Assembly: GCA_022710975.1 (NCBI GenBank)
Contig: JAKLGA010000013.1
Coordinates: forward strand, 141,363 to 205,362
Length of the DNA: 64,000 nt
Source: Myxococcota bacterium
GTDB taxonomy: Bacteria; Myxococcota; B64-G9
Direction: 5' to 3'
This document shows, in pieces, positions 10,670 through 50,040 of the stretch. The stretch's first letter is position 1. Each line of letters opens with the position of its first letter. A program made the position numbers and the translations under genes. The notes beneath the pieces are model-generated. The model saw nothing but the letters and a program-made list of their open reading frames with translations, was not told where the DNA came from and ran no database searches.

Positions 10670-10673
10670 GGGC

Positions 10674-11588: not shown

Positions 11589-11626
11589 GCGCCGAGGTTA
11601 CCCCTCCTGGAGGCTCCTTTCCAGCC

Positions 11627-27863: not shown

Positions 27864-28066
27864 GGGAACCTCCGCGGAATGGACCACGCCCTGGACACGC
27901 TGTGTGGATCTCGAATGCTCGCCCGTCCTTCGCTGTCACACTCTAGCATCGCTGTCAATAGTGTGCCAGGGATCACAAACCCGATTCCGCCTACTTTGTG
28001 GGACGTTGTGCCACCTTGGGTGATGTGTGACATCCTGGCCCGGTGGAGACTCGACCGCGAGGAGGG

Positions 28067-31000: not shown

Positions 31001-31225
31001 CCCGTTCCGGCAGGTCATGCCGTCCGGGCAGGCGTCGAACTCGGCGCAGGGCTGCACCCCCGGGACGCACACCCCGGAGTCGCAGTAGGTGCCGTAGACG
31101 CACTCCGTATCCTGCGAGCAGATGGCGGGGCCGTCCTGGCCGCCGGGGCTCGAGGACGAGCAGCCGGCGGCGAGCGCCAGGGCGAGCAGCAGCAGGGCAG
31201 GGGACAGGCGTCGGAGGTTCGTCAT
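28067..31225 (-). CDS. Giant Cys-rich lipoprotein with choice-of-anchor-D-like repeats and four NCGxCGxxC repeats
   Basis: ATG at 31225 (MTNLRRLSPALLLLALALAAGC) preceded by GAGGT. At least 5 LDFG-type beta-sandwich repeats. Four about 45-aa repeats of type DPQNCGGCGVVCT...WGDCD...NGCET. 1052 aa. Confidence 0.7.
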   Translation of the reverse strand: MTNLRRLSPALLLLALALAAGCSSSSPGGQDGPAICSQDTECVYGTYCDSGVCVPGVQPCAEFDACPDGMTCRNGTCVLSGQPDGGDGGDDQDGEDGEDGADQGPLGPDLEIVQPPLTGDPPLHQLDFGNVAVGLTVEQAIVVRNAGDQELRVLQLNLEAGAEDFAIPSAVTDALPLVLGPGDEASLQVTYSASDGVTDHGVLDIVSNDPDEALVKVHLLSEFKGEARAVLSTPALDFGDVPVGQSGGPLSVSLANQGTGNAVLAVSEVRAPARPDFVLKLVDANGDLAELPALLNQGEFLEAQVTYTPDAPGVDGDELVFSTDDPLAPSLRVPLAGRGAVGALSADPSPVVPGRVRVGAQATVRVNLSNEGDAALAIDSVSLQGVSAEWSLTSGSLDLPNLPTAPHVVPMGEMVWVELTFAPADVGFEAGELVATTSDPVGELRVALHAEGYEPAHVELVPEPAALAFGDVQLDQALGLHETRSLPLVLRSTGGDPLTVAAVARATGTTADYTWQPAAFAPVPSGQEVQLQISFAPTTAGIQNGSLLIDTNDPDVAVDGVVGRVAVSLSARGTDSLIFTTPASAHDFGAAAIGELRSATLSIRNASAYPLAVNEIRMGSGSSPAFGLQGVPVLPALIPDAGGEILVTMLYQPTAGGPASGAVEILSSDLGRPLVTITLQGQCQGCPAGLANCDADPDCETDTQTDPQNCGGCGVVCTAQHGDNPCVGGLCTPECDPLWGDCDNLPRNGCETPTNTLDDCSTCDVRCELPNAVESCSTGACTLTACDWGFHDCNASAGCETRTDNDPAHCGDCDTVCTNAHGGIACANSLCSPSCSSLWGSCDGDPIDGCETQLTSLSDCGFCGTPCGPLANATATCGTGTCAIESCNAGWCDLNNLPANGCEFDLDTNPACGSYTDIGDISGDEGAGRISYSGRGETWLRLYVMETYEDWSSCLYLSTIITLAPGLNTDYDLFAYCDGCSTVADSSSNGGTTLDQVELRWEEECVLGFPSGSDSSRYVYLQVRYYSGATCNPWSLEVYGNPAVATATCSEL

Positions 31226-31348
31226 GGCACCTGACCTCACTTTTCAGTCATGGGCCCGGGCAGGAGGGAGCCAACCGCGCCCCGCTCCGCTAGATACTAG
31301 CCCGCGGATGACAGATCGGTCAATTCGACGACCGGGCGGGCGGCGCGC

Positions 31349-32878: not shown

Positions 32879-34168
32879 ATGCGCAAGCTGATCCCCTGGA
32901 TGCTGGTGCTGGCCCTGGCCGGGTGCGCGGAGGAGGAGGGCACCGACGTGCCTGGCGAGGGCGAGGATCTCGGGCTGGGCGAGCTGTCCTCCGAGGACGA
33001 CAAGGAAGACGGCATGTGGGGCGCGGCCACCACCTGCAAGGCCATCCCCGACCTGCCGCCGCTCTCGAGCCCGCGCATCATCGTCTCGCTGCACGGGCTC
33101 ACCCTGCGGCTGGTGGACGAGGCGGCCGGCTACGACAAGGTGTTCCCCATCGGCCCCGGCGCGATCGACTCCAGCCCCTCCTCGCTGACCTACCAGGAGT
33201 CGCTGAGCATGTACCCGCTGCTGCGGTACGACACCCAGGACTTCGAGCTGCGGCCGGCCACCATCACCGCCTGCAAGATCTGGTGGCGCGACCCGGCCAC
33301 GGGCAAGCGCCTGCCGGTGTTCGCCGGGCTGCCGTTCCTGTCCTGGAGCGGCAACTACGGCATGCACGGGCCGATCGACAACTACCGGGCGGCCAACGGC
33401 GGCACGCTGCGGCGCGGCTTCGTGTCCCACGGCTGCCTGCGCATGGAGGCCGCCGACGTGCTCGAGGTGTACGCCCGCATCCGCGGCGTGGCGCGCGTCC
33501 CGGTGCGCGTGTCGCGCGAGCCGGAGCGCGACGCGGACGGCGTGCGGGTGGACGTGCCCGGCCGCTGGTTCGGCTCGGAGTGCCGCGCGGACGCCGACTG
33601 CGACTTCCAGAACGGCTTCTGCCTGGACAACCCGGTGGGCGGGCGCGGCTACTGCGCCCAGGCGTGCTCACGCACCTGCCCGGACAAGGCCGGCTACCCG
33701 GTGTCCTTCTGCGTGGCCGATCCCGGCGCGCCCGAGCGCGGGGTGTGCGCGCTCAAGGAGCAGGCCGAGAACCGCGGCTGCAGGCCGGGCGATCACCTGG
33801 TGCCCACGGCCCGCACCCGGTTCAACGAGCCGGCCGTGAGCGCCACGGTCTGCCTGCCGGGCTCCAGGGGCTGGATCGGCGACCGCTGCCTGGCGGACGG
33901 TGACTGCCTGGACGGGACGAGCTGCGTGCCCGTGGACGGCGCCGGCGGGGTGGGCATGTGCACCCAGGGCTGCACCAGCTCCTGCCCGGACCAGCCCGGC
34001 CGGCCGTGGACGGCCTGCGTGGAGGAGCCCGCGCTCGGCGGGGACACCTGCCTGCGCCAGTGCACCCCGGACGACCAGGGCGCGGAGTGCCCCGAGGGCT
34101 TCCTGTGCGAGGATCGGCCGCGCGCCGATCCCAGCCGGCCGGCCGTGGACGCCTGCGTCCCGCTCTGA
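32879..34168 (+). CDS. L,D-transpeptidase (YkuD) family lipoprotein with Cys-rich C-terminal extension
   Basis: Signal [16 protein letters not shown]. Catalytic motif [10 protein letters not shown]. About 200-aa Cys-rich tail. Confidence 0.7.
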
Positions 34169-34248: not shown

Positions 34249-34857
34249 ATGAAGATACTGGTGATCTTCTATTCTTCGTACGGACACATCTACAAGATGG
34301 CCGAGGCCGTGGCCGCGGGCGCGCGCGAGGCGGGCGCCGAGGTGATCCTGCGGCGCATCCCCGAGACGCTGCCGGTCGAGGTGCTGGAGAAGACGGGCGC
34401 CAGGGCCGCCCAGCAGGCCTTCGCGCACGTCCCCGTGGCGAGCGTGGACGAGCTGACCGGATACGACGCCATCGTGTTCGGCGTGCCCACGCGCTTCGGC
34501 AACGTCATCTCCCAGATGCAGGCCTTCCTGGACGCGACCGGCGGGCTGTGGGCCAGGGGCGCGCTGGTCGGCAAGCTGGGCAGCGTGTTCGTCTCCAGCG
34601 CCACCCAGCACGGCGGCCAGGAGACCACCATCCGCGCGCTACACACGAGCCTGCTGCACCACGGCATGGTGATCGCCGGCCTGCCCTACTCGTTCCAGGG
34701 GCTGATGAGGCTGGACGAGGTCACGGGCGGCTCCCCCTACGGCGCGTCCACCATCGCCGGTGGCAAGGGAGAGCGGCAGCCCTCCGAGAACGAGCTGGCT
34801 GGAGCGCGTTTCCAGGGACGGCACATCGCCGGACTGACCCGGAAGCTGGCCGGCTGA
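34249..34857 (+). CDS. wrbA: NAD(P)H:quinone oxidoreductase WrbA (flavodoxin-like)
   Basis: [27 protein letters not shown]..., flavodoxin-like fold, preceded by GAGGGAG. Confidence 0.85.
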
Positions 34858-34906
34858 GCAGGGCCTCTTGACGGGCCCTCGCGGGTCTGCCTACCCTGAA
34901 TGGGTC

Positions 34907-36862
34907 ATGACGGACCCCGAGAACGGGTGGGGAGCAGCGTTCTCGCTGCTCGACGCGTTGAAGATGCCGGTCGTGCTCCTCGGAGCCGACCGCACCATCC
35001 TGGCCGCGAACCTGGCCGCGCTCAAGCTGGCCGGCGGTCACCCCGAGCAGATCCTGGGTCAGCCCTGCCACCGGCTGTTCCACGGAGGCGCCGAGCGACC
35101 GCCGGCCGATTGCCCCCTCGACAAGGTGATCGCCGCGTGTGGCGAGCAGTCCGCGGAGATGAGGGTGGAGGCCCTGGGCGGGACGTTCCTGGTCTCCTGC
35201 GCCCCGGTGCCGGACGCACGCGGCGGGCCGGTCCGCTACCTGCACGTGCTGCACGACATCACCGAGCGCCTGCAGGCCGAGCGGGCGCTGCAGGACAGCC
35301 AGCGCCACCTGGCCGAGTCCAACCAGATGCTGCAGCTCGTGCTCGACACCATCCCGGTGCGCATCTTCTGGAAGGACAGGGACTGCCGCTTCCTGGGCTG
35401 CAACCGTCTGTTCGCGGAGGACGCCGGCCGCGCCTCGCCGGCCGAGCTCATCGGGCGCACCGACTTCGACATGGGCTGGCGCGAGCAGGCCGAGCAGTAC
35501 ACCCGCGACGACCGCCTGGTGATGGAGAGCGGCCAGGGCAAGGTGGCCTACGAGGAGCCCCAGACCAGCCCGTCCGGCCAGGCCCTGTGGCTGCGGACCA
35601 CCAAGGTGCCGCTGCGCGACCTGGACGGGGAGGTGATCGGGGTGCTGGGCACCTACGAGGACATCACCCCGCAGAAGCAGGCCGAGGAGGAGCGCGCGCG
35701 CCTTTCCGCCCAGCTCCAGCAGGCGGTCAAGATGGAGGCCCTCGGCCGGCTGGCCGGCGGGGTGGCGCACGACTTCAACAATCTCTTGACCAGCATCCTG
35801 GGGTACTCCTCGCTGGGCATGCTGGGGCTCAAGGCGGACGATCCGCTGCACCCCATCCTGGCGGACGTGCGCAAGGCCGCCGAGAGCGCCGCGCACCTGA
35901 CCCGGCAGCTCCTGGCCTTCGCCCGCAAGCAGGTGGTCGAGCCGCGGGTGCTCGATCTGCGCGAGGTGGTCGCCGACCTGCACCGGCTGCTCGGGCGGGT
36001 GATCGGCGAGGACGTGGAGCTCTGCGCCGCGCCGGGCGAGGGGCCGGCCGCGGTGCGGGTGGACCCGGGCCAGGTCGAGCAGATCCTGGTCAACCTGGCG
36101 GTCAACGCGCGCGACGCCATGCCCGGGGGCGGGCGCCTGACCATCTCGACCGGCCAGGAGGTGCTGGAGGATGCGCGGGCGCTGGCCCTGGGGGTGCCCG
36201 CGGGCCGCTACGTGCGCCTGACCGTGGCCGACACCGGCAGCGGCATGGGCGACGAGGTCAAGGCCCACCTGTTCGAGCCGTTCTTCACCACCAAGCCCCG
36301 GGGCCGGGGCACCGGCCTGGGGCTGGCTTCGGTCTACGGCGCGGTGCGCCAGGCCGGCGGCGCCATCGACGTGGACACCGCGGCCGGGCGCGGGACCGCC
36401 TTCCACATCTTCCTGCCCGCGCAGGACGGGCCGGCCGCGCCGCTCCGGCGCGGCCCGGACGAGCCCGAGCTGCCGGCCGGCCACGAGGCGGTGCTGCTGG
36501 TCGAGGACGACGCGGTGGTGCGGGAGGCCGGCCGGCGCATGCTGGAGCGGCTGGGCTACCGGGTGTGGAGCGCCTCGAGCGGCGAGGAGGCCCTGCGGCT
36601 GGTGGTGTCCGGGACCTGCCAGGCGGAGCTGCTCTTCAGCGACGTGGTCATGCCGGGCCTCAACGGCGTGGAGCTGACCCAGCAGCTCCGCGCGATGATC
36701 CCGGGGCTCAAGGTGGTGCTCACCTCGGGTTACGCCGAGGAGGCCGTGGAGCGGCTCGGCGAGCGCGCCCCCGGGGCGCTCTTCCTGCCCAAGCCCTACA
36801 CCGCCGGCAGCCTGGCCGGGAAGCTGCGCGAGGCCCTGGACGGACCGCCCCGCAGGCGCTGA
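34907..36862 (+). CDS. Hybrid sensor histidine kinase (PAS-PAS-HisKA-HATPase-REC)
   Basis: H-box [13 protein letters not shown] boxes [15 protein letters not shown] and GTGLGLA, receiver LLVEDD...DVVMPGLNG...KPY. Confidence 0.8.
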
Positions 36863-36907: not shown

Positions 36908-37576
36908 TTGGGCATCATGCGCGCGCGGAACCCACTTTCAGGAAATGGCATTCTGTTCGGGGTGATCGGCGTCCTGGCGGCCTGGCAGGGCGCGGGCTGT
37001 GAGCGGGGGCCGCTCGAGCTCGTCTGCACGCCCCTGCAACCAGGGGCCCTCGTGGTCACCGAGGTGTCCAGCGCCGGCTGGCACTGGATCGAGATCGCCA
37101 ACCCCGGCGCCAGCGAGATCGCGCTGACGGGCATGCAGTTCCTGTTCGGCGGCGCCGGCGGGACATACGTGGACGAGTTCTGGATTCGCGAGCACGACGT
37201 GAGCCTGGCGCCCGGTGGGCGGTACGTGGCCGCCCGGTTCCCCGGCAGCGTGTCCCCTCCGGCCTGGGCCGACTACCTGTTCGGGGACGAGTTCGACGCC
37301 GACTTCCCCAGCTCCGGCATCCTCGAGATCCACAACTGCGACGATCACGCTGACATCGGCGCCATCAACCCCGAGCTCGTGGACCGCGTCCAGTGGTCCG
37401 GGCTGCCCGAGACCGGGAGCTGGGCCTTCGACGGCGGCCAGGCCCCGAACGCGCTGGCGAACGACACCCCGACGAGCTGGTGCCAGGACTCCCACTCGCA
37501 GACCCTCGGGGCCGGGCCGTACGACACGGTGCTGGGCTCCCCGGGCGAGGACAACCCCCCATGCGCCACCCCCTGA
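36908..37576 (+). CDS. Lamin-tail-domain (LTD) lipoprotein
   Basis: Signal and lipobox ...VLAAWQGAGC. LVVTEVSSAGWHWIEIANPGASEIALTGMQF matches the LTD signature (NE..p...EWIEl.N). Confidence 0.7.
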   Translation: MGIMRARNPLSGNGILFGVIGVLAAWQGAGCERGPLELVCTPLQPGALVVTEVSSAGWHWIEIANPGASEIALTGMQFLFGGAGGTYVDEFWIREHDVSLAPGGRYVAARFPGSVSPPAWADYLFGDEFDADFPSSGILEIHNCDDHADIGAINPELVDRVQWSGLPETGSWAFDGGQAPNALANDTPTSWCQDSHSQTLGAGPYDTVLGSPGEDNPPCATP

Positions 37577-38928
37577 AGCGTTGGTCCACAGCGGTCCTGG
37601 CGCTCGCGCTCGCGCTCGGGCTGAGCGGCTGTTTCGGCGGCTCCAAGACCCAGCGCCGGGCCAACAAGGCCGAGCTGCAGGAGCGCCTGCGGAAGCTCGA
37701 GACCCCGGGCCTGCTGCTGGGCGAGTTCCCGCTGGCCAAGAACGCGGTGGTGGACGGCGACACCATCAAAGTGGCCGGGCTGAACGCCAGCCTGCGCCTG
37801 ACCGGCATGGACACCGAGGAGACCTTCAAGTCCGAGGGCGATAGGCGCCTGTTCGAGATGGGCTGGGAGCACTACCTCAAGACCAAGCGCGGCAAGTCCC
37901 GGCACCCGGTCAAGGCGGCCAGCCCGCTCGGCGAGGACGCCAAGAAGTTCGCCAAGGCCTTCTTCGCCGACGCGGACACGGTGCGCCTGGAGCGCGACCA
38001 CCCCAAGGAGATCCGCGACCGCTACAACCGCTACCTGGCCTACGCCTTCGCCAAGAAGAACGGCGAGTGGGTCAACTACAACGTCGAGGCGGTGCGGGCC
38101 GGCATGAGCCCGTACTTCATGAAGTACGCCTACTCGCGCCGCTTCCACGACCAGTTCGCGGCCGCCCAGCAGGAGGCCCGCGCGGCCCAGCGCGGCATCT
38201 GGAAGCCCGGCGCCATGGCCTACCCCGACTACCCCGAGCGGCTGCGCTGGTGGGAGGCGCGCGCGCGCTACATCAAGGCCTTCGAGGAGGAGGCCGAGGG
38301 CAAGGACGACTACGTCATCCTGACCCAGTGGGACTCGCTGAAGCGCCTGGAGGCCAAGCTCGATCAGCAGGTGACCGTGTTCGGCACGGTGGGGGAGATC
38401 AAGCTCGGCGACCGCGGGCCGACCGTGGCCACGCTCAGCCGGCGCATGTTCGGCGATCTGCAGATCGTCTTCTTCGACAAGGACGTGTTCCTGGGCTCCT
38501 GCATCGGCAACATGACCGGCGAGTTCGTGCGCGTGCGCGGCGCGGTCACCAAGTACCGCGACCGGTTCCGCAAGCGCGAGTACCTCCAGATCGTGGTCAA
38601 CCTGCCGGGCCAGGTGGAGTGCTGCCCGCTGGACTCCGCGTTCGCGGGCTCCGACCCGGCCCAGCCGCCCATGCCCGAGCCGCGCAAGCAGGCCGCGCCG
38701 GCGCGGGCCGAGCCGGCCAAGGCCGGGGAGCCGGCGCCCGCGGAGCCCGAGCCGCCCGAGGACGAGGACGAGACCTGGGAGCAGTGGGCCCCGCCCGCGG
38801 GGGGCGTGGGCGAGGATCCGGGCGACGAGGGCGAGGACGGGGGTGAGGACGAGGGCGCGGACACCCGCGCGGGCGGCGAGGTGGTGGGGGACGACCTGGG
38901 CGACGAATCCGGAGACCAGGCCCCGTGA
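37561..38928 (+). CDS. Staphylococcal-nuclease (SNase/thermonuclease)-like lipoprotein with extended C-terminal domain and acidic tail
   Basis: Signal MRHPLKRWSTAVLALALALGLSGC. SNase motifs VVDGDTIKV and LTGMDTEE. About 250 extra aa, then E/D/P-rich tail. Start overlaps the LTD gene end by 16 nt. Confidence 0.75.
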   Translation: MRHPLKRWSTAVLALALALGLSGCFGGSKTQRRANKAELQERLRKLETPGLLLGEFPLAKNAVVDGDTIKVAGLNASLRLTGMDTEETFKSEGDRRLFEMGWEHYLKTKRGKSRHPVKAASPLGEDAKKFAKAFFADADTVRLERDHPKEIRDRYNRYLAYAFAKKNGEWVNYNVEAVRAGMSPYFMKYAYSRRFHDQFAAAQQEARAAQRGIWKPGAMAYPDYPERLRWWEARARYIKAFEEEAEGKDDYVILTQWDSLKRLEAKLDQQVTVFGTVGEIKLGDRGPTVATLSRRMFGDLQIVFFDKDVFLGSCIGNMTGEFVRVRGAVTKYRDRFRKREYLQIVVNLPGQVECCPLDSAFAGSDPAQPPMPEPRKQAAPARAEPAKAGEPAPAEPEPPEDEDETWEQWAPPAGGVGEDPGDEGEDGGEDEGADTRAGGEVVGDDLGDESGDQAP

Positions 38929-38948
38929 GGGCCTCGGAGGGTAACGGC

Positions 38949-40682
38949 ATGCAGACGGTGCGCAAGGCGTTCGCGGGAGGGGGCTGGGTGGTGCTGGGCG
39001 GGCTCCTGCTCGCGGCGGTCGCGCTGGTGCCGGGCTGCGGCGGGGGCGGGGGAGGGGGCTGCAAGGCCAACCTGCTCGCCGGCGATCTCGCGGTCAGCGA
39101 GATCATGGCCAATCCGGCCGGCGCGGACTCGGGCAAGGAGTGGTTCGAGATCTACAACGCCACGGGCCAGACCCTCCAGCTCGAGGGGCTGACCGTGGTG
39201 CACAGCAAGGCGGACGGCACCGCGGAGAAGACCATCGCCCTGGACGAGGCCCAGGTGGCCGCGGGCGACTACTTCGTGCTGGGCGGTGCGGTGCCGGCCC
39301 TCAAGCCGACATTCATGGACTACGCCTATGGCGCCGCCCTCGGCGATCTCCGCAACACGGACGGCCAGCTGGCGCTGAGGTGCGACGCGCTGGTCATCGA
39401 TTCGGCCACCTACGCCAGCACGGCGGACGGCAGCTCCAGGGTGTTCGACGGCACCCAGGTGCCGGACGCCATCGCCAACGACACCCCCACCAAGTGGTGC
39501 GACTCCGAGGTCGAGTACGAGACCGGCTCCAAGGGCTCGCCCGGCGCGGCCAACGAGCACTGCGAGCCGGTGCTGCCGCCCGGCCAGTGCCAGGACGGCG
39601 CGAACCAGCGCGCGGTCCGGCCGCCGGCCGCGGGCAGCCTGGTGATCAACGAATACATGCCCGATCCGGCCACCCCTGTGGACGACGTAGTCGGCGAGTG
39701 GATCGAGCTCTACACCAGCGCGGACTTCGATCTGAACGGGCTGGAGCTCGGCAAGCTCCCGCCCGACATCGCCCAGACCCTGCCCAACGCCGACTGCGTC
39801 CCCATCCTGGCCGGCACCTACGTGGTGCTGGCCAGGAACGCGGACTCCGCCACCAATGGTGGGTTGCCCCGGGTGGACGCGTTGCTGACCATGTCCCTAT
39901 CCAACGACGCGGTCACGGGCATCTTCGTGGGCTACGGGGGCCAGGTGCTGGACGCCATCACCTACACCTCCTCCGACACCGGCGCCTCGACCGCCCTGGA
40001 TCCGACCAAGCGCAACCCGACCGACAACGATCAGGCCGGGTTCTGGTGCGAGGGAACAGATACCTATGGCGCAGGAAACAAGGGCACGCCCGGCGCGGCC
40101 AACCCCTCCTGCGGCATCATCACCCCGGGCATGTGCCTGGAGGGCGGGGTGGAGCGGGCCAAGGTGGCCCCGGCCGCCGGGGACCTGGTCATCAACGAGC
40201 TCATGGCCAACCCGGCCGCGGTGGAAGACACGGACGGCGAGTGGTTCGAGCTGTACGTGGGCCGGGACGTGGATCTGAACGGCCTGCAGCTCGGCCGCGC
40301 CGTGGGTGTGGTGAGCCTGACGCTCCCGGAGGGCGAGTGCCGCCGGGTGACCGCCGGCAGCCACGTGCTGTTCGCCCAGGAGACCGACCCGCTGGTGAAC
40401 GGCGGCCTCCCGGCCGTGGACGTGCAGCTCACCTTCGCCCTGGTGAACGGCAGCGCGGCCACCCCGGGCACCCTGTTCGTCGGGCTGGCCGGCGCGGTGC
40501 TGGACGACATCAGCTGGACGGGCTCGGACAGCGGCGTGGCCTCGAGCCTGAACCCCGCGGCCCGCAACCCGACCGACAACAACCTGCCCGCGTCCTGGTG
40601 CCCGGCGGTGAACGACTACGGCACGGGCGACCCGACCAAGGACAAGGGCACCCCGGGCGCGGCCAATCCGGCCTGTCCCTGA
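38949..40682 (+). CDS. Triple lamin-tail-domain (3xLTD) lipoprotein
   Basis: ATG preceded by GGAGGG. Signal ...LLLAAVALVPGC. Three LTD repeats (LAVSEIMANP...EWFEIYN, LVINEYMPDP...EWIELYT, LVINELMANP...EWFELYV), each followed by the same about 50-aa Cys-pair segment. Confidence 0.75.
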   Translation: MQTVRKAFAGGGWVVLGGLLLAAVALVPGCGGGGGGGCKANLLAGDLAVSEIMANPAGADSGKEWFEIYNATGQTLQLEGLTVVHSKADGTAEKTIALDEAQVAAGDYFVLGGAVPALKPTFMDYAYGAALGDLRNTDGQLALRCDALVIDSATYASTADGSSRVFDGTQVPDAIANDTPTKWCDSEVEYETGSKGSPGAANEHCEPVLPPGQCQDGANQRAVRPPAAGSLVINEYMPDPATPVDDVVGEWIELYTSADFDLNGLELGKLPPDIAQTLPNADCVPILAGTYVVLARNADSATNGGLPRVDALLTMSLSNDAVTGIFVGYGGQVLDAITYTSSDTGASTALDPTKRNPTDNDQAGFWCEGTDTYGAGNKGTPGAANPSCGIITPGMCLEGGVERAKVAPAAGDLVINELMANPAAVEDTDGEWFELYVGRDVDLNGLQLGRAVGVVSLTLPEGECRRVTAGSHVLFAQETDPLVNGGLPAVDVQLTFALVNGSAATPGTLFVGLAGAVLDDISWTGSDSGVASSLNPAARNPTDNNLPASWCPAVNDYGTGDPTKDKGTPGAANPACP

Positions 40683-40689
40683 GGGCCGC

Positions 40690-41154
40690 ATGCGCTGGGC
40701 TCTCCTGCTCCTCGGCCTCGGGCTCGCGGCCTGCGACGGCGGCGGCGGCGGGGAGAAGGCCGTCGTGGAGCGCATCATCGACGGCGACACGGTCGAGCTG
40801 CAGGACGGCCAGCGCCTGCGCTACCTGATGATCGACACCCCCGAGACCACGGGCGGCGCCACCGACTGCTACGGCCAGGAGGCCAAGGACTTCAACACCC
40901 AGCTCGTGCTCGGCCAGGAGGTGGAGCTCACCTTCGATGTCGAGCGCACCGACAACTTCGGGCGGCTACTGGCCTACGTGTCGGTGGCCGGGCGCGAGGT
41001 GAACACCCTCATGGTCGAGCGGGGCTACGCCTGCGTGCTCCTGATCCCGCCCAACGGCGAGGATCGCCGGGTGGAGTTCGAAAATTTAGAGATGGAGGCG
41101 CGCGGGTTCGGCCGCGGGATGTGGGGGGCGTGCGAGGTGGTAACTTGTGACTAG
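40690..41154 (+). CDS. SNase-like thermonuclease lipoprotein
   Basis: Signal MRWALLLLGLGLAAC. IIDGDTVEL, YLMIDTPE, GRLLAYV. 154 aa. Confidence 0.75.
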   Translation: MRWALLLLGLGLAACDGGGGGEKAVVERIIDGDTVELQDGQRLRYLMIDTPETTGGATDCYGQEAKDFNTQLVLGQEVELTFDVERTDNFGRLLAYVSVAGREVNTLMVERGYACVLLIPPNGEDRRVEFENLEMEARGFGRGMWGACEVVTCD

Positions 41155-41161
41155 AGAGGCT

Positions 41162-41722
41162 TCAGGGCGCGGTCGCCGCCCGGGTACAGCGGGCCGGCCT
41201 CTCCGGCGGCCCGGGGTAGGGGTAGCGGCCGGCCAGGCCGTCCGCCACCAGGCGCTCGTTGAGGTTCACCTTCTTGCACACCACGTAGCCCAGCCTCCGG
41301 CCGTAGGCGTCGCTGTCCGAGCCGGTCACCTCCACCTGCGCGCCCTCGGGGCAGAGTTCCCTGGCGCGCGCCGTGGCCAGCTTGCCGCAGGCCAGCACAT
41401 CCTCGTAGGTCAGGCCCCACTGGCGCGCCTGGCGCCGGGCCCGGGCGCGGGAGTTCCGGTCGAAGCCGCTCTCGGCCGTGTCGACGCCCACCAGGCGCAC
41501 CGCCACGTCCGGCCCGCCGTCGGAGCAGCGCACGTAGGGCGTGTCGCCGTCCTCCCACTCCACCAGCAGGCAGGGCATGGGGGGCGCCTCCCGGGACAGC
41601 TCCTCGAGGGTGGGGATGGGCGCGGGCGGACGATCGCCGAACGGGGAGTCCGAGGCGTCCCCGTCGGTGGCGCAGGCCGCGGGCAGCGCGAGAAACACCA
41701 TGGCTAGCTTGGAGATCCCCAT
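41162..41722 (-). CDS. SNase-like thermonuclease (third copy), probably a lipoprotein starting at an internal ATG around 41701
   Basis: WEDGDTPYV, LVGVDTAE, RRLGYVV motifs. MVFLALPAACATDG looks like the true signal and lipobox. Confidence 0.65.
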   Translation of the reverse strand: MGISKLAMVFLALPAACATDGDASDSPFGDRPPAPIPTLEELSREAPPMPCLLVEWEDGDTPYVRCSDGGPDVAVRLVGVDTAESGFDRNSRARARRQARQWGLTYEDVLACGKLATARARELCPEGAQVEVTGSDSDAYGRRLGYVVCKKVNLNERLVADGLAGRYPYPGPPERPARCTRAATAP

Positions 41723-43880
41723 GACGCGACGGTACTCCCTTACGCTCCTGGCGGCAACCCTGACGCTGCTCGGCCTGGGCGGCCCGAGCGCGCGGGCCGT
41801 GGACTACGGCGTGTTCGTCGAGGTGGAGACCGAGGAGGACATCCTCGACCTCCTGGCGGCCGGCGATCTCGACGAGGACGACGCCGAGACGCTGATCGAG
41901 CTCCTGGCGCAGGGGCTGGTGCTCGACCGGGCCAGCCGCGAGGAGCTGTACGCGCTGCCGAACCTGTCCTACGCGGACGTGGACGCCATCCTGGACTACC
42001 GCAAGGACGCCGGGGTGATCCCGGACCCGATGAACCTGGTGGTGGGCGGGGCCCTGGACGAGAAGAAGCTGCTGGCCATCGCCCCCTTCCTGGTGATCGA
42101 GGAGGAGGAGCCGGGCACCTTCCCCACCAAGGGCCGCTTCCGCTATCGCACGGCCTACGTGGCCGGGGACGAGAAGGTCCCCAGCATGATGCTGTCGGCC
42201 AGGGTGTCCACCCTGAAGAACCTGGACATCGGGCTGGTGGGCGTGCTGACCCACGGCCGGATCGGCGACGTCCGCTACGATCCCAACCGCGACGCGCTCT
42301 CGGCCGAGGGGCCGGCCGTGCGGGCGCACCTGCCCAAGTTCTACCTCCAGTGGGACACCACGAGCTGGCAGGTGGCGGCCGGGACCTACCGCATCGGCTT
42401 CGGCCAGCGGCTGACCTTCGACAACACCACGGCCTACACCCCGAACGGCATCAAGCTGGACGAGACCATCAACATGGCCCAGGACCTCGCCAACCAGTGC
42501 CGGGAGACCGCGGGTGAGCTGCCCAGCCCGTGCCTGGACGAGGACTACTACCAGTACGGCGCGCCCGACTACCGCTGGACCGACCGGCTGCGGGGCATCG
42601 CGGCCGGCTTCAAGCACGCCGAGGCCGGCCCGGGCTGGTTCCAGGGCTACGGCTTCCTGAGCTTCCAGACCCACAGCCCCACGCAGTACCAGATCTACCG
42701 CCCGGATCACTGCGACGACCCCTTCTCGGACGATTCCGAGTGCTCCGCGCCGGATCTGTTCCTGCGCCGCGGCGACCTGCTCGCCGACACCACCGAGCTG
42801 AAGTGGGCCGTGCTGCCGGACATGTTCAACGAGCTGCTGGGCGGGGCCAACGTGGCCTACTTCTTCAATCGCCGCACCCACGTGGGGGTGACCGGCTACG
42901 GGGCCGACCTGTACTGGCTGACGGAGGGCATCCAGCTCGACCTCCAGGACTGGGCGCGCCTGCCCTTCGGCGGGCCGTTCGGCGCGGTGGGGGTGGACGC
43001 GGCCTGGGGCCACGAGGTGATCGACCTCTTCCTGGAGCTCACCCGCTCCTTCGACTCCCAGCCCGCGGGCGGCGGCTGGGCCGCGCTGCTGCGCGGCACC
43101 GCCACCTGGAAGAAGCACGAGTTCGAGGCCACCGCGCGCTACTTCGACCAGGACTTCAACAACCCCTACGCCCGGCCCATCGCCGCGGACGACCAGTACC
43201 AGGGCCTGCGGGCCTCGGACGAGGCCGGGGTGAAGCTGAAGTACACCGGCGACCTGGGCGACCTCGATCTGCGCGCCGCGCTCGATGTGTGGGCCCAGCT
43301 CTCGGGCGAGATCCCGCGGACCTTCCTGTACCTGCGCGCCAGCTACGAGGTCGAGGAGTGGTTCAAGCCCGGGCTGTACTTCGACTACAGGGACAAGGAT
43401 CTCAGCGACACCGGCCGGGACAACTGCTACGTGGGCGAGGACTACGAGGACGAGGGGACCGGGGAGCCGACCGACTGCAAGGGTGAGAAGATCCGGGTCG
43501 GGCTGGAGCTCAAGTTCCAGCCGCTCAAGCGCCTGGGGATCACCGCCAAGTACCAGCACGGCTGGGTGGACGACGGCGGCACGTACTACCCGGACTCCAG
43601 GCGCCAGGACATCTCGGCCTGGGTGATCGCCATGTACAAGCCCATCGACGGGGTGCGGCTGCGCCTCCGGGTGCGCTACCTGAACGAGGGCATCGCCGAG
43701 AACGACTACCTGGAGCAGTCGGTGTGGGCGTACCTCGAGGGCTCCTACTGGTACGAGCGCTACTTCGGGGTGAAGCTGCGCTACGAGCTGTACGCCATCG
43801 TGGACGAGCGCGACAGCACCCAGCAGCGCTCCCCCAACCCCGCCCACTGGCTCCGGCTGGAGCTCGAGTACCGCTTCTGA
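41721..43880 (+). CDS. Large outer-membrane beta-barrel protein with N-terminal ComEA-like helix-hairpin-helix
   Basis: Signal MTRRYSLTLLAATLTLLGLGGPSARA. ASREELYALPNLSYADVDAILDYRKDAGVIPDPMNLV aligns with the ComEA HhH consensus. About 600 aa of alternating aromatic beta strands ending ...LELEYRF. Confidence 0.65.
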   Translation: MTRRYSLTLLAATLTLLGLGGPSARAVDYGVFVEVETEEDILDLLAAGDLDEDDAETLIELLAQGLVLDRASREELYALPNLSYADVDAILDYRKDAGVIPDPMNLVVGGALDEKKLLAIAPFLVIEEEEPGTFPTKGRFRYRTAYVAGDEKVPSMMLSARVSTLKNLDIGLVGVLTHGRIGDVRYDPNRDALSAEGPAVRAHLPKFYLQWDTTSWQVAAGTYRIGFGQRLTFDNTTAYTPNGIKLDETINMAQDLANQCRETAGELPSPCLDEDYYQYGAPDYRWTDRLRGIAAGFKHAEAGPGWFQGYGFLSFQTHSPTQYQIYRPDHCDDPFSDDSECSAPDLFLRRGDLLADTTELKWAVLPDMFNELLGGANVAYFFNRRTHVGVTGYGADLYWLTEGIQLDLQDWARLPFGGPFGAVGVDAAWGHEVIDLFLELTRSFDSQPAGGGWAALLRGTATWKKHEFEATARYFDQDFNNPYARPIAADDQYQGLRASDEAGVKLKYTGDLGDLDLRAALDVWAQLSGEIPRTFLYLRASYEVEEWFKPGLYFDYRDKDLSDTGRDNCYVGEDYEDEGTGEPTDCKGEKIRVGLELKFQPLKRLGITAKYQHGWVDDGGTYYPDSRRQDISAWVIAMYKPIDGVRLRLRVRYLNEGIAENDYLEQSVWAYLEGSYWYERYFGVKLRYELYAIVDERDSTQQRSPNPAHWLRLELEYRF

Positions 43881-45342: not shown

Positions 45343-46887
45343 ATGCGGTTCCCCATCGAGGTGAAGGCGGTCATGCGCGGGGCCCTGGTGGTGTGCGCGG
45401 GCGAGGAGCAGGTGGCGGTCGGCTTCCCCGAGGAGGTGGTCAAGGCCTGGATGCGCGCGGGTCTCCAGCCCACCGCCTGGGTGGTGCCGGACGTCCGCTG
45501 CGCGGACGGCCTGGTGCAGTGGGCGCTCGAGTTCCCCCTGTACCACGCGCTGTTCGTGCGGAACCTGTTCGCCCAGGGCAAGAAGATCCCGGTGCTGGTG
45601 CAGGAGCGCGACTGGCCCGACGTGGTGGAGTACCTGCGGCTCAGCCTGCTGGGGCTCGAGCGGCCGGAGCTGCTGGCGGCCGGGCTCACGGCCGAGCTGG
45701 CCGACCAGCTGCTCGCCGAGCGCGCGGCGCTGGCGCTGAAGCGCGGGGATGGCGAGCTCGCCCGCCTGGAGGACTTCCTGGAGCCGCGCTTCTTCGACGC
45801 CGGGGGCGTGGCCGCGGTCGGTCCGCTGCGGGTCCGGGCCCACGGACAGAACACCTTCTCCTTCTCCAGCGCGGACGACCGGGTGGAGGCGGTGCGCCTG
45901 GAGGCCGGCGCGGCCGAGCCGCCCTGGGCCCGGCCTCCCGTCCCGGCCACGCCGCAGCCGGTCTCCAGCTCGCAGCCCTTCGTGCGGGTGCTGGGCAGCT
46001 CGACCGGCTTCGATCCGGACGGCCCCTGCACCAGCCTGCTGGTGCAGGCCCAGGGCCGGCTGGTGCTGGTGGACGCCGGCCCCCACGTGCGGGCGCTGCT
46101 CACCCAGGCCTGGGCGAGCCCCGCCGCGCTGCAGGCGGTGATCCTCACCCACGCCCACGAGGATCACGCGGTGGGCCTGTCCGCCCTGCTGGGCGGCCCG
46201 CGCAGGCTCCGGCTCTTCGCCACCCCGGAGGTGCTGGAGGTACTGCGGCGGAAACTCGCCATCCTGAACCCGGGGCTCGGCGATCCGGGCCGGCTGCTCG
46301 AGGACTCCTTCGAGCCCTGCCCGGTGGAGCCGGGCGTGGCGCTGGACTTCCAGGGGCTGGGATTGCGCTTCCACCGCACCCTCCACAGCATCCCCTGCGC
46401 CGGGGTGGAGCTGCGGCTGGAGGTGGGCGGCGTCGAGCGCCGGGTGCTGGTGCAGGGCGACTGCGTCAGCCGGGCCCGGTTCCAGGAGCTAGCCGCGGCC
46501 GGGGTGCTCTCGCCCGCCAGGCGGCGGGAGCTCGAGGCCCTGTGGAGCTGGCAGGGCGACCTGGTGTTCGCCGACACGGGCGGGGGAGCGCTGCACGGCC
46601 AGGCCGGGGACTTCGCCGCCCTCCCGGGGCGCCGCGTGGTGTGCGTGCACGCCGCCAGCCTGCCCGAGGCCGGGCGCCAGGGGCACACCCTGGCCGCCCC
46701 CGGCGATCGTTTCGGGCTGGGCCTGGAGGTGGGCGCGGTGCGGCTGCGCTCCGGGACGCGCCACCCGGCCCGCCGCCGGCCGCGGCCGGTCGCCCGCCGC
46801 CGCGGCCAGCCGCGCGAGGTCCTGGCCACCCGCGAGGAGATGGCCCTCCTGGGGGCGGCCATCAAGGATCAGGAGAAGGCCTCTTGA
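45343..46887 (+). CDS. MBL-fold metallo-hydrolase with about 200-aa N-terminal domain of unknown function
   Basis: ATG preceded by GGAAGGAGG. MBL motifs LVLVDAGP and VILTHAHEDH. N-terminal domain has no recognisable family. Confidence 0.7.
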   Translation: MRFPIEVKAVMRGALVVCAGEEQVAVGFPEEVVKAWMRAGLQPTAWVVPDVRCADGLVQWALEFPLYHALFVRNLFAQGKKIPVLVQERDWPDVVEYLRLSLLGLERPELLAAGLTAELADQLLAERAALALKRGDGELARLEDFLEPRFFDAGGVAAVGPLRVRAHGQNTFSFSSADDRVEAVRLEAGAAEPPWARPPVPATPQPVSSSQPFVRVLGSSTGFDPDGPCTSLLVQAQGRLVLVDAGPHVRALLTQAWASPAALQAVILTHAHEDHAVGLSALLGGPRRLRLFATPEVLEVLRRKLAILNPGLGDPGRLLEDSFEPCPVEPGVALDFQGLGLRFHRTLHSIPCAGVELRLEVGGVERRVLVQGDCVSRARFQELAAAGVLSPARRRELEALWSWQGDLVFADTGGGALHGQAGDFAALPGRRVVCVHAASLPEAGRQGHTLAAPGDRFGLGLEVGAVRLRSGTRHPARRRPRPVARRRGQPREVLATREEMALLGAAIKDQEKAS

Positions 46888-47990: not shown

Positions 47991-48070
47991 CTCTGATGGT
48001 GCCAGCCGATTTCCCTGCCAGCCGATTTCCCTCTGATGGTGCCAGCCGATTTCTGCAAGATTTCTGCAAA
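47991..48070. repeat. Short direct repeats (ctgatggtgccagccgatttc x2, gccagccgatttcc x3, gatttctgcaa x2)
   Basis: Seen directly in the sequence between the hypothetical gene end and the transposase 3' end. Confidence 0.6.
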
Positions 48071-48273
48071 CGCCGGGTGGGCAGGACCGCCGAATCGCGG
48101 CAGGGTGAGTTTCTAGACCGGGTGAGCCCCTCCGCGGGTCTGCGGAGGCTCGGTTTCAGGTCAGATCGGAACGCTCATGCGGCTGGATTCTGGGCTTCGT
48201 GCAGGGGTCTGCCTCTGGCCAGGCCGTCAGGTAGTGATCTTCGCTTGTCGGACGCTCGTCACTTGACCGTGGC

Positions 48274-49215
48274 TCACGGCGGGCCGGCGCCCTGGTAGGC
48301 CAGGGCCGGTGGGAAGCAGTGCTCCGGGAAGATCGCGGTCAGGTCTCCAGCTCTCAGCCTGGCTGAGGCCTCCCGGAACACGCTCGCGAACGTCCGGTAG
48401 GCGGCGCGGTAGGCCTTCCAGAGCACCGCGCTCGCCGTGTGGCAGGAGGGCGCCCTGCTGCGCTTCACTTCTTTCGGAATGCCGTGCGGGTGCTGGGCCA
48501 GGATGCGGTGAACGCCCATCGGTCGGGTGCCTTCTTTCTCGTGCCGCTCCTTCGTCTCGGCCTCGATGTCCGCGACCATGGCCCGGACCTTCGCCTGTCG
48601 CGCCTCCTCGCTGAGGTCCGCCCAGCAGGGCAGAGGAGCCATCGGGATCGGGTAGCGGATGAACGCCTCCTCGGGCTTCAGGCCATCCTCGCAGCCCATC
48701 GGATCCTGGCTCGGGTCGCTGGAGCTTCTCGGCTTCCGGTGCAGGGCGGTGTGATCGACCCACACGCCCTCGAGCTGCTTCCCCTCGAGGAGGGCGGGCA
48801 GGCAGCTGACCCCGGGCCAGTCCCCGGGCATCATCACCAGGCCTTCCTTGCAGCCGTGGGAGAGGATGTAGCGCAAGCGGGCGACCAGCGCCTCGTCGTC
48901 GCGGATGGGGATGGCGCGGTAGCGCCTCTCCCAGAAGGGCCCGTGCCAGCCGTGGAGCTTGTTCACCTGGCGGGCGATGTTGGACTCGAGGTAGCCCATG
49001 AAGGCGGAGATGGCCTGGGAGCTCAGGCCCCTGAGGAGCAGGTGGAAGTGGTTGGAGGCCCAGAAGAAGGCGAAAATGCCGATCTCTGGGAACTGGTCCA
49101 GGGCGCGGCCGAGGCAGCCGAGGAGGATGGCGTTGAGCTCTTCGGAGGGGCGGAGGAGGAGCCTGCCCATGACGGTGCGGTTGGTGATCTCGAACAGGGT
49201 GCCCGGCTCGGGCAT
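48274..49215 (-). mobile_element. HuH Y1 tyrosine transposase, IS200-like / REP-associated (RAYT-like) family
   Basis: FEITNRTVMGRLLL then FWASNHFHLLL (HuH motif, cf. MPNHFHLLL of RAYTs), and GPFWERRY...RYILSHGCKEGLV...PGDWPGVS (Tyr region). R/P-rich N-terminal 107 aa of the table ORF judged non-coding. Flanked by palindromic REP-like repeats. Confidence 0.6.
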
Positions 49216-49469
49216 GAAGCGCAGCGGTCTCGGCAAGGTTCCCCTCCGTGAAACCTGCCCTGCAAACCGCTTGCCAGCTTGAGCTAGCCAACGAAGATGG
49301 CGTTGACCTGGACGCGGTCGTGGCTGACAATCGAGGCATGGCGATGGGTTGCGAGGATCGGGGACGGAGGGAGTGGTCGACAGAGCGCCAGGCCGAGGCC
49401 CTGCCTGTACTGCCTGACGTGACCGGAATCCGGTCACCGTGGATGAAAAAACCGGACACGCTCCGGGCG

Positions 49470-49630
49470 GGGCCAGGACCTCGGGAGCTGGCGCTGAGAA
49501 TAGGGTGTCACGCACTGGGGGAAAATAGGGTGGCACGCGCTGGGGCGCTGAACGACCCTGTCACCAAGACAGGGCGATTGGAAGGTCGGAGGGTCGGCGC
49601 TGAAAGACCCTGGCACCAGTACAGGGGAGA
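49470..49630. repeat. REP-like tandem and palindromic repeats (tagggtgNcacgcNctgggg x2; gcgctgaaNgaccctgNcaccaNNacagggg x2)
   Basis: Each long unit contains an inverted repeat (ccctgtc...gacaggg). The last unit at 49597-49627 recurs at 50041-50070. Confidence 0.5.
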
Positions 49631-49636
49631 TAATAC

Positions 49637-49960
49637 ATGGCGACATACATTGAAGAGTTTCGGGAATTGATCGCCTCAGAATTCCCAAAGGAACGGGAAA
49701 GGGCAGCAGACGAGGTCACTGACATCCATAGAGGTGTGGGTGATGCCGAGGCAGTTGAATTTGCTAGAATCCTCGTAGCGGCAAGGTTGGTAGAACCAGA
49801 CCTGGCTTGCCAGGAAGCGCAGCTTCATGCAATCTGCGATCTCATGGCCTGGCATCACATTCCGGCTGAAGCTGTGATGCCACTCAAAGAGCTTCGAGGA
49901 AAATCCGACCTGGGAGCACAAGAGGAGTACCTCGAAGATATCATTGGAAAACCTCCCTAA
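49637..49960 (+). CDS. Small hypothetical protein in a low-GC island (107 aa)
   Basis: GC drops to about 50% over 49630-49990. Complete ORF MATYIEEFRELIASEF...EDIIGKPP with natural composition. Flanked by about 30-bp direct repeats. Confidence 0.4.
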   Translation: MATYIEEFRELIASEFPKERERAADEVTDIHRGVGDAEAVEFARILVAARLVEPDLACQEAQLHAICDLMAWHHIPAEAVMPLKELRGKSDLGAQEEYLEDIIGKPP

Positions 49961-50040
49961 CCACGATTGGGTATAGGTCTACATCCGAGGTCGGGTAGCG
50001 AGGTCGCATCAACACTTCTCGAGATTCTTGAGCCTGTGCC

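Follow-up and report, generated by a model that had tools for sequence, protein, structure and literature searches.

The question raised by this locus is whether a group of neighbouring genes for secreted proteins, located in a 64,000-nucleotide stretch of a Myxococcota contig (JAKLGA010000013.1; hereafter the window), encodes an apparatus for handling extracellular nucleic acids and, if so, of which kind. The first-pass annotation counted seven consecutive genes in a candidate module for capture and degradation of extracellular DNA. Only six are present according to GC3-based gene calling, with which the public calls on the identical contig concur, and the list accompanying that annotation also held six:

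36917..37576, + strand: G1, single-module LTD lipoprotein (219 aa from the gene calls; alternative TTG start at 36908)
37561..38928, + strand: G2, lipoprotein with an SNase domain and a candidate OB fold (455 aa)
38949..40682, + strand: G3, LTD lipoprotein with three tandem modules (3xLTD, 577 aa)
40690..41154, + strand: G4, small SNase lipoprotein (154 aa)
41162..41722, - strand: G5, third SNase lipoprotein, antisense (186 aa)
41721..43880, + strand: G6, outer-membrane beta-barrel with signal peptide (719 aa)

G1 and G2 overlap by 16 bp, the gaps G2/G3, G3/G4 and G4/G5 measure 20, 7 and 7 bp, and the start codons of G5 and G6 overlap head-to-head at a CATG (41720-41723). A histidine kinase gene ends 54 bp upstream of the ATG start of G1 (45 bp from the TTG start). 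The secretion signals initially noted on every gene were found again: G1 to G5 possess lipoboxes (GAGC, LSGC, VPGC, LAAC and PAAC, respectively), which qualifies them as bacterial lipoproteins, and G6 has a Sec signal peptide. Lipobox-like sites occur in 17/20, 39/55, 77/83 and 33/38 ortholog ORFs, counts obtained with crude start calling, the 77/83 referring to LTD-type ORFs. Position +2 of the lipoboxes in the G1 to G4 orthologs is never Lys, the inner-membrane retention signal of M. xanthus.

Synteny was counted in 60 Myxococcota loci from genomes with sufficient flanking sequence. The order G1-G2-G3-G4-(G5)-G6 on one strand is found in 51 of them, with a G1 ortholog 5' of G2 likewise in 51/60, and G2-G3-G4-G6 is present in 59/60. 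Recurrence of the block with identical order and strand in 51/60 genomes puts the arrangement far beyond chance. Cultured carriers of the operon include Nannocystis exedens DSM 71, Plesiocystis pacifica SIR-1 and Enhygromyxa salina. G4 is located directly 5' of the barrel gene in 75/80 loci (extrapolated median gap 17 bp), and the extrapolated medians of the intergenic gaps are -9, 37 and 17 bp; the flanking genes are not conserved among the loci. G1 to G4 and G6 thus form a real, strongly conserved Myxococcota operon, to which G5 was added in this lineage. The proposed co-conservation was borne out for these five genes but not for G5, a lineage-specific insertion present in 7/60 loci (the closest relative has it in the identical arrangement), nor for the PAS histidine kinase, which had been noted upstream of the genes. 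Neither the closest syntenic relative nor the other loci have the kinase at this site; it is a lineage-specific insertion outside the system.

The deepest conserved link, unanticipated in the first-pass annotation, is that between the barrel and an LTD lipoprotein. Distant barrel relatives (28-32% identity) still adjoin an LTD lipoprotein (L085, L086, L087, L088, L090 and L092) and/or a small nuclease, which is an SNase in L084 and L090. The place of the SNase is taken in L092 by a PLD/Nuc-type lipoprotein of 172 aa that bears the motif HxK(x)4D and whose gene overlaps the barrel gene. The evolutionary core of the module consists of the barrel (G6) and the two LTD lipoproteins (G1 and G3). No paper on this operon was found in a literature search, and the myxobacterial operon as a whole is apparently undescribed so far.

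The assignments of SNase, LTD and HhH fold on which the module had been postulated hold on profile searches, on an alignment of G1 with G3 and on a profile of the G6-family N-terminus. Pfam SNase (PF00565) matches G2, G4 and G5 with 47.8, 69.2 and 38.5 bits (cut-off 21 bits), and the SNase fold is recovered in these proteins. Aligned with S. aureus nuclease A, all three retain the Ca2+ ligands D21, D40 and T41 as well as the catalytic residues R35, E43 and R87 without exception. In G2, the SNase domain (aa ~50-215, pI 9.6) is followed by a helical linker, a candidate OB-fold domain (aa ~250-355, pI 8.5; PF01336 and PF12869 tested) and an acidic, disordered C-terminal tail of 97 aa. G4, in which the lipobox LAA/C precedes the residues D-G5, differs from staphylococcal nuclease by its acidic pI (4.3). 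The SNase match of G5 spans model positions 2-78 of 107, the C-terminal helix being absent.

G3 matches LTD (PF00932) with 88.6 bits over three stretches (Pfam cut-off 34.3 bits). G1 alone reaches 19.9 bits, under the cut-off, but can be aligned over its full length to the first module of G3 (E 7e-15), both ending in a W-C...G-S/T-P-G-x-x-N-x-x-C motif. A search of PDB sequences with G3 gave no match. The lipobox of G1 (...QGAG/C) yields a mature protein of pI 4.05; that of G3 (VPG/C) is followed by a Gly7 tether. About two to five or more LTD modules are found in G3 orthologs, and conserved Cys pairs are present in every LTD module and in the long loops of the barrel. The modules of G3 have a net charge of -14 to -15 each, and LTD modules overall range from -14 to -22 at a pI of about 4.05, which leaves the suggested capture of DNA by the LTD proteins unsupported.

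G6 combines the Sec signal, closed antiparallel barrel (aa ~137-719) and C-terminal aromatic residue (...EYRF) of outer-membrane beta-barrel proteins. Because DSSP gives 25 strand segments, the strand number (presumably ~24-26) and the side of the membrane on which the N-terminal domain is located can only be inferred. In a crude count, lumen-facing strand positions comprise ~29 basic and ~21 acidic residues, the basic ones including a ladder of R646/648/650/652, while the remaining protein is strongly acidic. The top structural matches are the usher pores PapC and FimD. These, like LptD-LptE and MtrB-MtrC, are large single-chain barrels housing a partner, with which G6 may be compared; identity is only 8-11%, however, there is no family-level sequence match, and unlike in those systems no gene for a chaperone or periplasmic partner is present here. 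The likeness to chaperone-usher ushers is structural only, as Pfam Usher does not match G6 and no chaperone gene was found in the window or in 80 loci. Neither is G6 a TonB-dependent transporter or SusC, since it has no plug, TonB box or TonB_dep_Rec profile match.

The N-terminal part of G6 (aa ~28-126) is an acidic ComEA-fold, (HhH)2-like domain with a net charge of about -18. G6 alone scores 16.6 bits against Pfam HHH_3 (PF12836), below the cut-off of 27 bits, but most G6 relatives have a precomputed PF12836 match, and the family N-terminal profile matches ComEA (8dss) over the whole HhH domain (E 3.7e-8) as well as EEPD1 (E 4.6e-9). The (HhH)2 fold and an L-P...I..YR..G core are common to ComEA and the G6 domain, which differs in being fused to an outer-membrane barrel. 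Where ComEA has L-P-G-I-G-x-x-K, the G6 family has L-P-N-L-S/T-Y-x-D-V-D, with N81 and D88 invariant across 37 sequences. D88 corresponds to K63 of ComEA; in V. cholerae, where ComEA acts as a periplasmic ratchet, the exchange K63E abolishes DNA binding (PMC3879209). With the G-I-G hairpin lost, K62/K63 replaced by x/Asp and a net negative charge, the domain does not qualify as a functional ComEA, and the view that this segment captures DNA found no support.

Taken together, the operon probably encodes an outer-membrane-associated, envelope-anchored apparatus for scavenging and degrading extracytoplasmic nucleic acids. Physically, this apparatus would be centred on G6, G1 and G3 in the outer membrane. 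The three lipid-anchored, putatively Ca2+-dependent staphylococcal-type nucleases, with G4 as the small nuclease beside the barrel and G5 as an extra one in this lineage, would cut DNA or RNA arriving at the cell envelope, and the basic candidate OB fold of G2 may bind nucleic acids. The barrel might admit fragments to the periplasm, or else position or retain the lipoproteins at the surface. Products would be dephosphorylated and imported as nucleosides for salvage or catabolism, to the possible benefit of the phosphorus, nitrogen and carbon nutrition of saprophytic or predatory hosts. Because the LTD modules and the N-terminal domain are acidic and the ComEA contacts are replaced, two of the three component types are without evident nucleic-acid binding.

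Among the roles initially considered, nutrient scavenging is best supported, both by the nucleoside genes flanking Nannocystales operons and by the replacement of the SNase, in one distant lineage, by a PLD-type nuclease that is not homologous to it. Nucleoside genes, confirmed with Pfam and NCBIfam, are located beside the operon in 29/80 loci, mostly of Nannocystales, and encode NupC/CNT nucleoside transporters (20 loci), adenosine deaminases (16) and thymidine kinases (12). The window itself has no such transporter, deaminase or kinase neighbours. One locus has a gene for a secreted HAD/acid-phosphatase-like protein between the SNase and the barrel genes, but the members conserved across the loci include neither a nucleotidase nor a phosphatase, which leaves the step from 3'-nucleotide to nucleoside unaccounted for.

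A possible but rather unlikely variant retains scavenging and regards the barrel as a translocon or docking platform, comparable to Slam, the ushers, LptD-LptE or MtrB-MtrC, which delivers the LTD lipoproteins and the lipid-anchored nucleases to the cell surface or retains them at this site, while digestion products use ordinary porins. In its favour, the association of the barrel with an LTD lipoprotein is conserved more deeply than that with a nuclease. PapC and FimD export Ig-fold subunits, and the LTD has been called an Ig fold (PMC6746945). Barrels of ~24-26 strands belong to the size class that houses proteins or polymers, whereas mononucleotides are too small to require such a pore, and an acidic N-terminal domain without the DNA contacts of ComEA would suit protein binding.

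It is doubtful that the nucleases chiefly remodel the DNA-containing matrix of the hosts' own biofilms or fruiting bodies, or release cells caught in DNA, instead of primarily serving nutrition. Xds/Dns and ExeM are reported to be cell-associated nucleases controlling biofilm architecture, which is in favour of such a role, and the role is compatible with scavenging rather than exclusive of it. It explains, however, neither the dedicated giant barrel nor the adjacency of the genes for nucleoside transport, adenosine deamination and thymidine phosphorylation.

Competence-like uptake for transformation, with the barrel conducting DNA and the N-terminal domain ratcheting it into the periplasm, is very improbable. 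The homology of this domain to the DNA-binding domain of ComEA and its periplasmic location in a canonical outer-membrane topology would be in line with uptake, whereas the altered hairpin, the invariant Asp in place of the essential Lys and the strongly negative charge argue against it. Moreover, the two or three non-specific nucleases of the operon would destroy transforming DNA, and the neighbours are genes of nucleoside catabolism and salvage, not comEC, dprA or pilus genes. A function of the SNase lipoproteins as toxins against other bacteria, for instance as SitA-like cargo of outer-membrane exchange, is scarcely credible: lipoprotein nuclease toxins are reported to pass between myxobacteria by this route, and a PT-HINT pretoxin protein is encoded upstream of the barrel at one distant locus, but no immunity gene adjoins the SNase genes, the proteins, instead of showing polymorphism, are conserved as orthologs whose synteny is fixed, and SNase requires millimolar Ca2+, which is lacking in the target cytoplasm.

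According to the first-pass annotation, no described system has this arrangement. For the exact operon this agrees with the literature search, but a precedent for an LTD-SNase lipoprotein exists in Hvo_1477 of Haloferax volcanii, which is required for growth on extracellular DNA and has been tied experimentally to its use as phosphorus source (PMC3929857, PMC5118699). Because Hvo_1477 already joins LTD and SNase, the arrangement is less unprecedented than claimed. The lipobox, the thermonuclease domain and the lamin-tail domain are common to both. Hvo_1477 is one fused polypeptide of an archaeon without outer membrane, whereas SNase and LTD are separate lipoproteins here; in addition, the operon has a multiplied LTD and a candidate OB fold on one of its nucleases, and its dedicated outer-membrane barrel is always present.

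[quoted passage not shown] Nucleases of this type are not known to have a partner barrel. A polypeptide combining LTD, OB fold and EEP was not found in the operon: Pfam detects no EEP domain in G1 to G6, and the LTDs belong to other proteins than the candidate OB fold. Nuclease activity of Xds from V. cholerae depends on its OB fold, while the LTD is dispensable for activity and for membrane association (PMC6746945).

Parallels may also be drawn to the Sus-like systems for polysaccharide utilisation. There, a SusC barrel is combined with the surface lipoproteins SusD/E/F/G, and by analogy the operon could be seen as pairing a large barrel with endo-acting lipoprotein enzymes and tandem beta-sandwich lipoproteins, with genes for inner-membrane transport and catabolism of the monomers next door. 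Unlike in Sus systems, the operon lacks a TonB box, a plug and a protein like SusD (no Pfam matches), the sequence of its barrel is unrelated, and nucleic acid is the presumed substrate. Among single enzymes, YhcR of Bacillus subtilis unites OB and SNase domains, and the single-HKD lipoprotein of L092 is of the Nuc type of PLD. YncB and YokF of the same species are thermonuclease lipoproteins like G2, G4 and G5 (YokF-type surface nucleases are cited in PMC3929857). YncB/YokF, YhcR and Nuc are stand-alone, Gram-positive or plasmid enzymes without LTD or barrel partners. Relatives of G2 are labelled 'endonuclease YncB' by JGI.

The locus comprises six genes, not the seven stated in the first-pass annotation:

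36917-37576, plus strand: G1, single-module lamin tail domain (LTD) lipoprotein, 219 aa
37561-38928, plus strand: G2, SNase and OB-fold lipoprotein, 455 aa
38949-40682, plus strand: G3, lipoprotein with three LTD modules, 577 aa
40690-41154, plus strand: G4, small SNase lipoprotein, 154 aa
41162-41722, minus strand: G5, antisense SNase lipoprotein, 186 aa
41721-43880, plus strand: G6, outer-membrane barrel with a ComEA-fold N-terminal domain, 719 aa

ORF lists are rich in artefacts because of the G+C content of the window (~72%). The gene models were derived from third-position GC, with one frame chosen per gene, and match the public gene calls on the same DNA exactly (Myxococcota MAG contig, GCA_035453905.1; JGI 3300010429). 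There is a 16-bp overlap between G1 and G2, and the later gaps are 20, 7 and 7 bp. The starts of G5 and G6 overlap head to head in a CATG palindrome (41720-41723), and a further CATG at 41699-41702 provides alternative starts for both genes. Due to this overlap, the promoter of G6 must be located inside G5, or G6 is transcribed antisense through G5. The same head-to-head pair is found in the closest relative (L093; 9442-10002 minus and 10001-12172 plus). A scan for sigma-70 promoters and terminators returned 0 promoters and 2 terminator-like sites, compared to 1.5 expected.

Lipoboxes are present in G1 to G5, while G6 carries a Sec signal peptide and ends in ...EYRF. The SNase assignments made earlier hold for G2, G4 and G5, all of which score above the Pfam cut-off and retain in the alignment the residues that serve staphylococcal nuclease in Ca2+ binding and catalysis (D21, R35, D40, T41, E43 and R87). 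The LTD assignments were confirmed for G3, in which three stretches exceed the Pfam cut-off, while G1 remained below it (19.9 bits), yet is homologous to the first G3 module (end-to-end alignment, E 7e-15; common terminal motif W-C...G-S/T-P-G-x-x-N-x-x-C). The AlphaFold model of G2 (pLDDT 76) comprises four parts, including a long helix and a 97-residue acidic disordered tail. A protein identical to G2 is named "OB-fold protein" by NCBI, and the OB models PF01336 (6/15) and PF12869 (9/15) match C-terminal fragments of G2 relatives. PDB sequence searches with G3 and the OB fragment gave no useful match. According to charge calculation, the SNase domain (pI 9.6) and the OB domain (pI 8.5) of G2 are the sole basic parts. 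The disordered tail (residues 359-455, window 38635-38928; net charge -23) is missing from most orthologs, which are about 360-400 aa long; it could act on the basic SNase and OB domains of the same protein as an autoinhibitory DNA mimic, or be merely lineage-specific low complexity.

In M. xanthus, a lysine at position +2 marks inner-membrane lipoproteins (PMC3222651). In the orthologs of G1 to G4 the lipoboxes are kept and the residue at +2 after the lipobox cysteine is Gly, Ala, Ser, Asp or Glu, never Lys, so these proteins are likely anchored in the outer membrane, provided that the M. xanthus rule extends to Polyangia.

In the model of G6 (pLDDT 83, pTM 0.81), a helical N-terminal domain leads into a very large barrel with 25 DSSP strand segments, from which 24-26 strands are estimated; an even count of 26 is reached only if residues 184-187 and 192-195 are taken as a hairpin. 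From residue 201 on, tight turns of 2-5 residues alternate with long Cys-containing loops in the model, which fits the canonical topology, where the C-terminus faces the periplasm. Only with an even number of strands would the N-terminal domain be periplasmic too. The nearest structures are the usher pores PapC and FimD, FhuA and MtrB, a likeness that is generic among large barrels (8-11% identity). No Pfam or NCBIfam family covered the barrel in profile searches, and a PDB sequence search with it gave no useful match. The barrel was not assigned to the TonB-dependent, usher, Slam or LptD families either, because their profiles gave zero matches. A rough count of the strand positions that face the lumen (~29 basic versus ~21 acidic, including a ladder of R646/648/650/652) hints weakly at an anionic cargo. 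When 1.84 billion representatives were searched exhaustively with HMMER (E <= 1e-3), the barrel family had only 468 members (clusters at 50% identity), none of which belongs to a curated family. Nearly all are 680-790 aa in length, and their alignments begin at about residue 10-25; the combination of N-terminal domain and barrel is thus a constant architecture. Records of the family that name an organism are from Myxococcota without exception.

The ComEA-like HhH motif noted in the barrel protein by the first-pass annotation is borne out as homology, since the family profile of the N-terminus matches the ComEA DNA-binding domain 8dss (E 3.7e-8), as well as the HhH repeats of EEPD1. In V. cholerae ComEA, DNA is bound by the GIG hairpin and K62/K63, and the exchange K63E abolishes binding and transformation (PMC3879209). 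In the aligned HhH1 the G6 family has L-P-N-L-S/T-Y-x-D in place of L-P-G-I-G-x-x-K, N81 and D88 being invariant among 37 barrel-family sequences, and the G6 domain carries a net charge of about -18. The domain has a ComEA fold, but ComEA-style DNA binding is not to be assumed for it, and the proposed capture of DNA by the HhH segment is unsupported. The same applies to capture by the LTD proteins, every module of which is strongly acidic (net charge -14 to -22, pI ~4.05). Binding bridged by Ca2+ would be conceivable. In Xds of V. cholerae, the LTD is dispensable for nuclease activity and for membrane association (PMC6746945).

Relatives of the barrel were found in 279 genomes when one genome per GTDB species was scanned. 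The best 80 of the 279 loci were retrieved; they include Nannocystis exedens, N. bainbridge, N. radixulma, Enhygromyxa salina, Plesiocystis pacifica, Paraliomyxa miuraensis, Kofleriaceae and many MAGs. Gene order was counted in those 60 of the best 80 loci whose upstream flank of the barrel exceeds 6.5 kb. The arrangement G1-G2-G3-G4-(G5)-G6 is conserved in order and strand in 51/60 loci, in line with the expected neighbourhood conservation, and G2-G3-G4-G6 in 59/60; the exception is G5, present in only 7/60. By extrapolation, the median intergenic gaps are -9, 37 and 17 bp, and G3 orthologs contain about two to five or more LTD modules. Other genes of the window are not conserved near the barrel in the best 80 of 279 loci. 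The closest syntenic relative, L093, has a barrel 65% identical to G6 and shares the flanks of the window on both sides, including two very large proteins upstream of the operon (25533-27935 and 28067-31243, minus strand; ~800 and 1058 aa) with weak matches to DUF1573/ASH/HYDIN-type Ig-like domains. It is devoid of the genes for a YkuD Cys-rich lipoprotein, a flavodoxin and a PAS-PAS-HisKA-HATPase-REC hybrid kinase, which form a three-gene insertion in the window (34249-36862 and 32879-34168). Since L093 is otherwise syntenic, the kinase is part of a local insertion outside the system; as a regulator of the module it was rejected, with no conserved kinase at this position in the best 80 of 279 loci.

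Gene contexts were also inspected for barrel-family members of only 28-32% identity, with Pfam checks on the neighbours.

Gene contexts of distant barrel relatives
L084: SNase overlaps the barrel
L085: barrel, then a 617-aa LTD lipoprotein
L086: 784-aa triple-LTD lipoprotein, divergent from the barrel
L087: LTD, then barrel
L088: barrel, then LTD
L090: LTD-SNase pair, divergent from the barrel
L092, 1618-2136: 172-aa PLD/Nuc-type single-HKD lipoprotein (HHKFVVVD motif, PLDc_2 91.8 bits) overlaps the barrel, then a 783-aa LTD protein

The most constant partner of the barrel is an LTD lipoprotein. The small lipoprotein nuclease is a strong member of the module as well, because in one lineage (L092) SNase was replaced by the unrelated PLD/Nuc family. 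Directly upstream of the barrel-LTD pair in L085, a 1137-aa PT-HINT (pretoxin Hint) protein is encoded (L085:2087-5500), possibly a coincidence or another cargo of the same outer-membrane module.

All ORFs of the best 80 of 279 loci were clustered and the neighbours checked by Pfam and NCBIfam. Nucleoside-handling genes are located directly beside the operon in 29/80 of these loci, mostly of Nannocystales and including cultured Nannocystis species. They encode a NupC/CNT nucleoside transporter (20 of the best 80 loci), adenosine deaminase (16) and thymidine kinase (12), often with a nucleoside/base-deaminase-like amidohydrolase downstream; the transporter, adenosine deaminase and thymidine kinase are not found in the window itself. 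One locus encodes a secreted HAD/class-B-acid-phosphatase-like protein between SNase and barrel (L019:733-1644), with a CNT nucleoside transporter just downstream. As a candidate for the missing nucleotidase step it was discarded as anecdotal (1 of the best 80 loci only).

We consider it reasonably probable that the operon encodes an outer-membrane nuclease complex scavenging nucleic acids. The nucleoside-handling neighbours, together with the displacement of one nuclease family by another, argue for a harvest of nucleic acids for nucleoside uptake rather than for transformation or toxin delivery; a competence-like role, a toxin role and matrix remodelling alone are less consistent. The barrel may be an import channel, or it may serve its lipoprotein partners as a platform or translocon. 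A more far-reaching version of the scavenging complex, which we hold to be rather doubtful, is that barrel, LTD lipoprotein and small nuclease constitute an unrecognised outer-membrane "nucleic-acid utilisation" machine importing fragments. Surface nucleases would supply oligonucleotide or polymer fragments, which would cross the barrel of ~24-26 strands independently of TonB and pili, with transport being gated or biased by the re-purposed ComEA-derived periplasmic domain and the LTD partner.

Soil and sediment hold major pools of phosphorus and nitrogen in the form of extracellular DNA and RNA, and myxobacteria feed by digesting other microbes. To our knowledge, the passage of nucleic-acid breakdown products, or of the enzymes forming them, across the Gram-negative outer membrane is poorly defined. 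If correct, the import model would describe the first route, apart from the competence secretin, that is dedicated to bringing nucleic-acid fragments in across the outer membrane, and assign the first function to free-standing bacterial LTD proteins. With five conserved genes and cultured carriers in Nannocystis, Plesiocystis, Enhygromyxa and Paraliomyxa, the operon is a compact, testable system. It also provides a handle on the long-unexplained bacterial LTD, here too acidic for a simple DNA binder.

The arrangement had been proposed to be undescribed. The operon was indeed absent from the open-access literature searched (LTD/nuclease/outer membrane; HhH/barrel/myxobacteria; LTD/thermonuclease/lipoprotein), which is no proof of absence elsewhere, while the pairing of SNase and LTD has a precedent. 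The closest experimental one is the lipoprotein Hvo_1477 of Haloferax volcanii, involved in extracellular DNA metabolism (PMC3929857), in which SNase and LTD are fused in one chain, whereas they are separate lipoproteins in this operon. In Xds, ExeM and NucH, a single protein unites LTD and OB with EEP, a nuclease domain of another kind. New compared to these systems are the split lipoproteins, the multiplied free-standing LTD proteins and, above all, the dedicated, so far uncharacterised barrel family with its degenerate ComEA domain.

Further downstream, 1.4 kb from the barrel gene and separated from it by genes for an enoyl-CoA hydratase and a GNAT protein, a 514-aa metallo-beta-lactamase-fold protein with a match to Pfam Anti-Pycsar_Apyc1 is encoded (45343-46887). 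It may be a cyclic-nucleotide phosphodiesterase; its homolog in L093 is 742 aa long and has an added cNMP-binding domain. The G+C content drops to 0.64 at ~48000-50000, compared to about 0.72-0.77 elsewhere in the window, and the public gene calls have a weak match to a Y1 (IS200/RAYT-like) transposase at ~48274-49240 on the minus strand.
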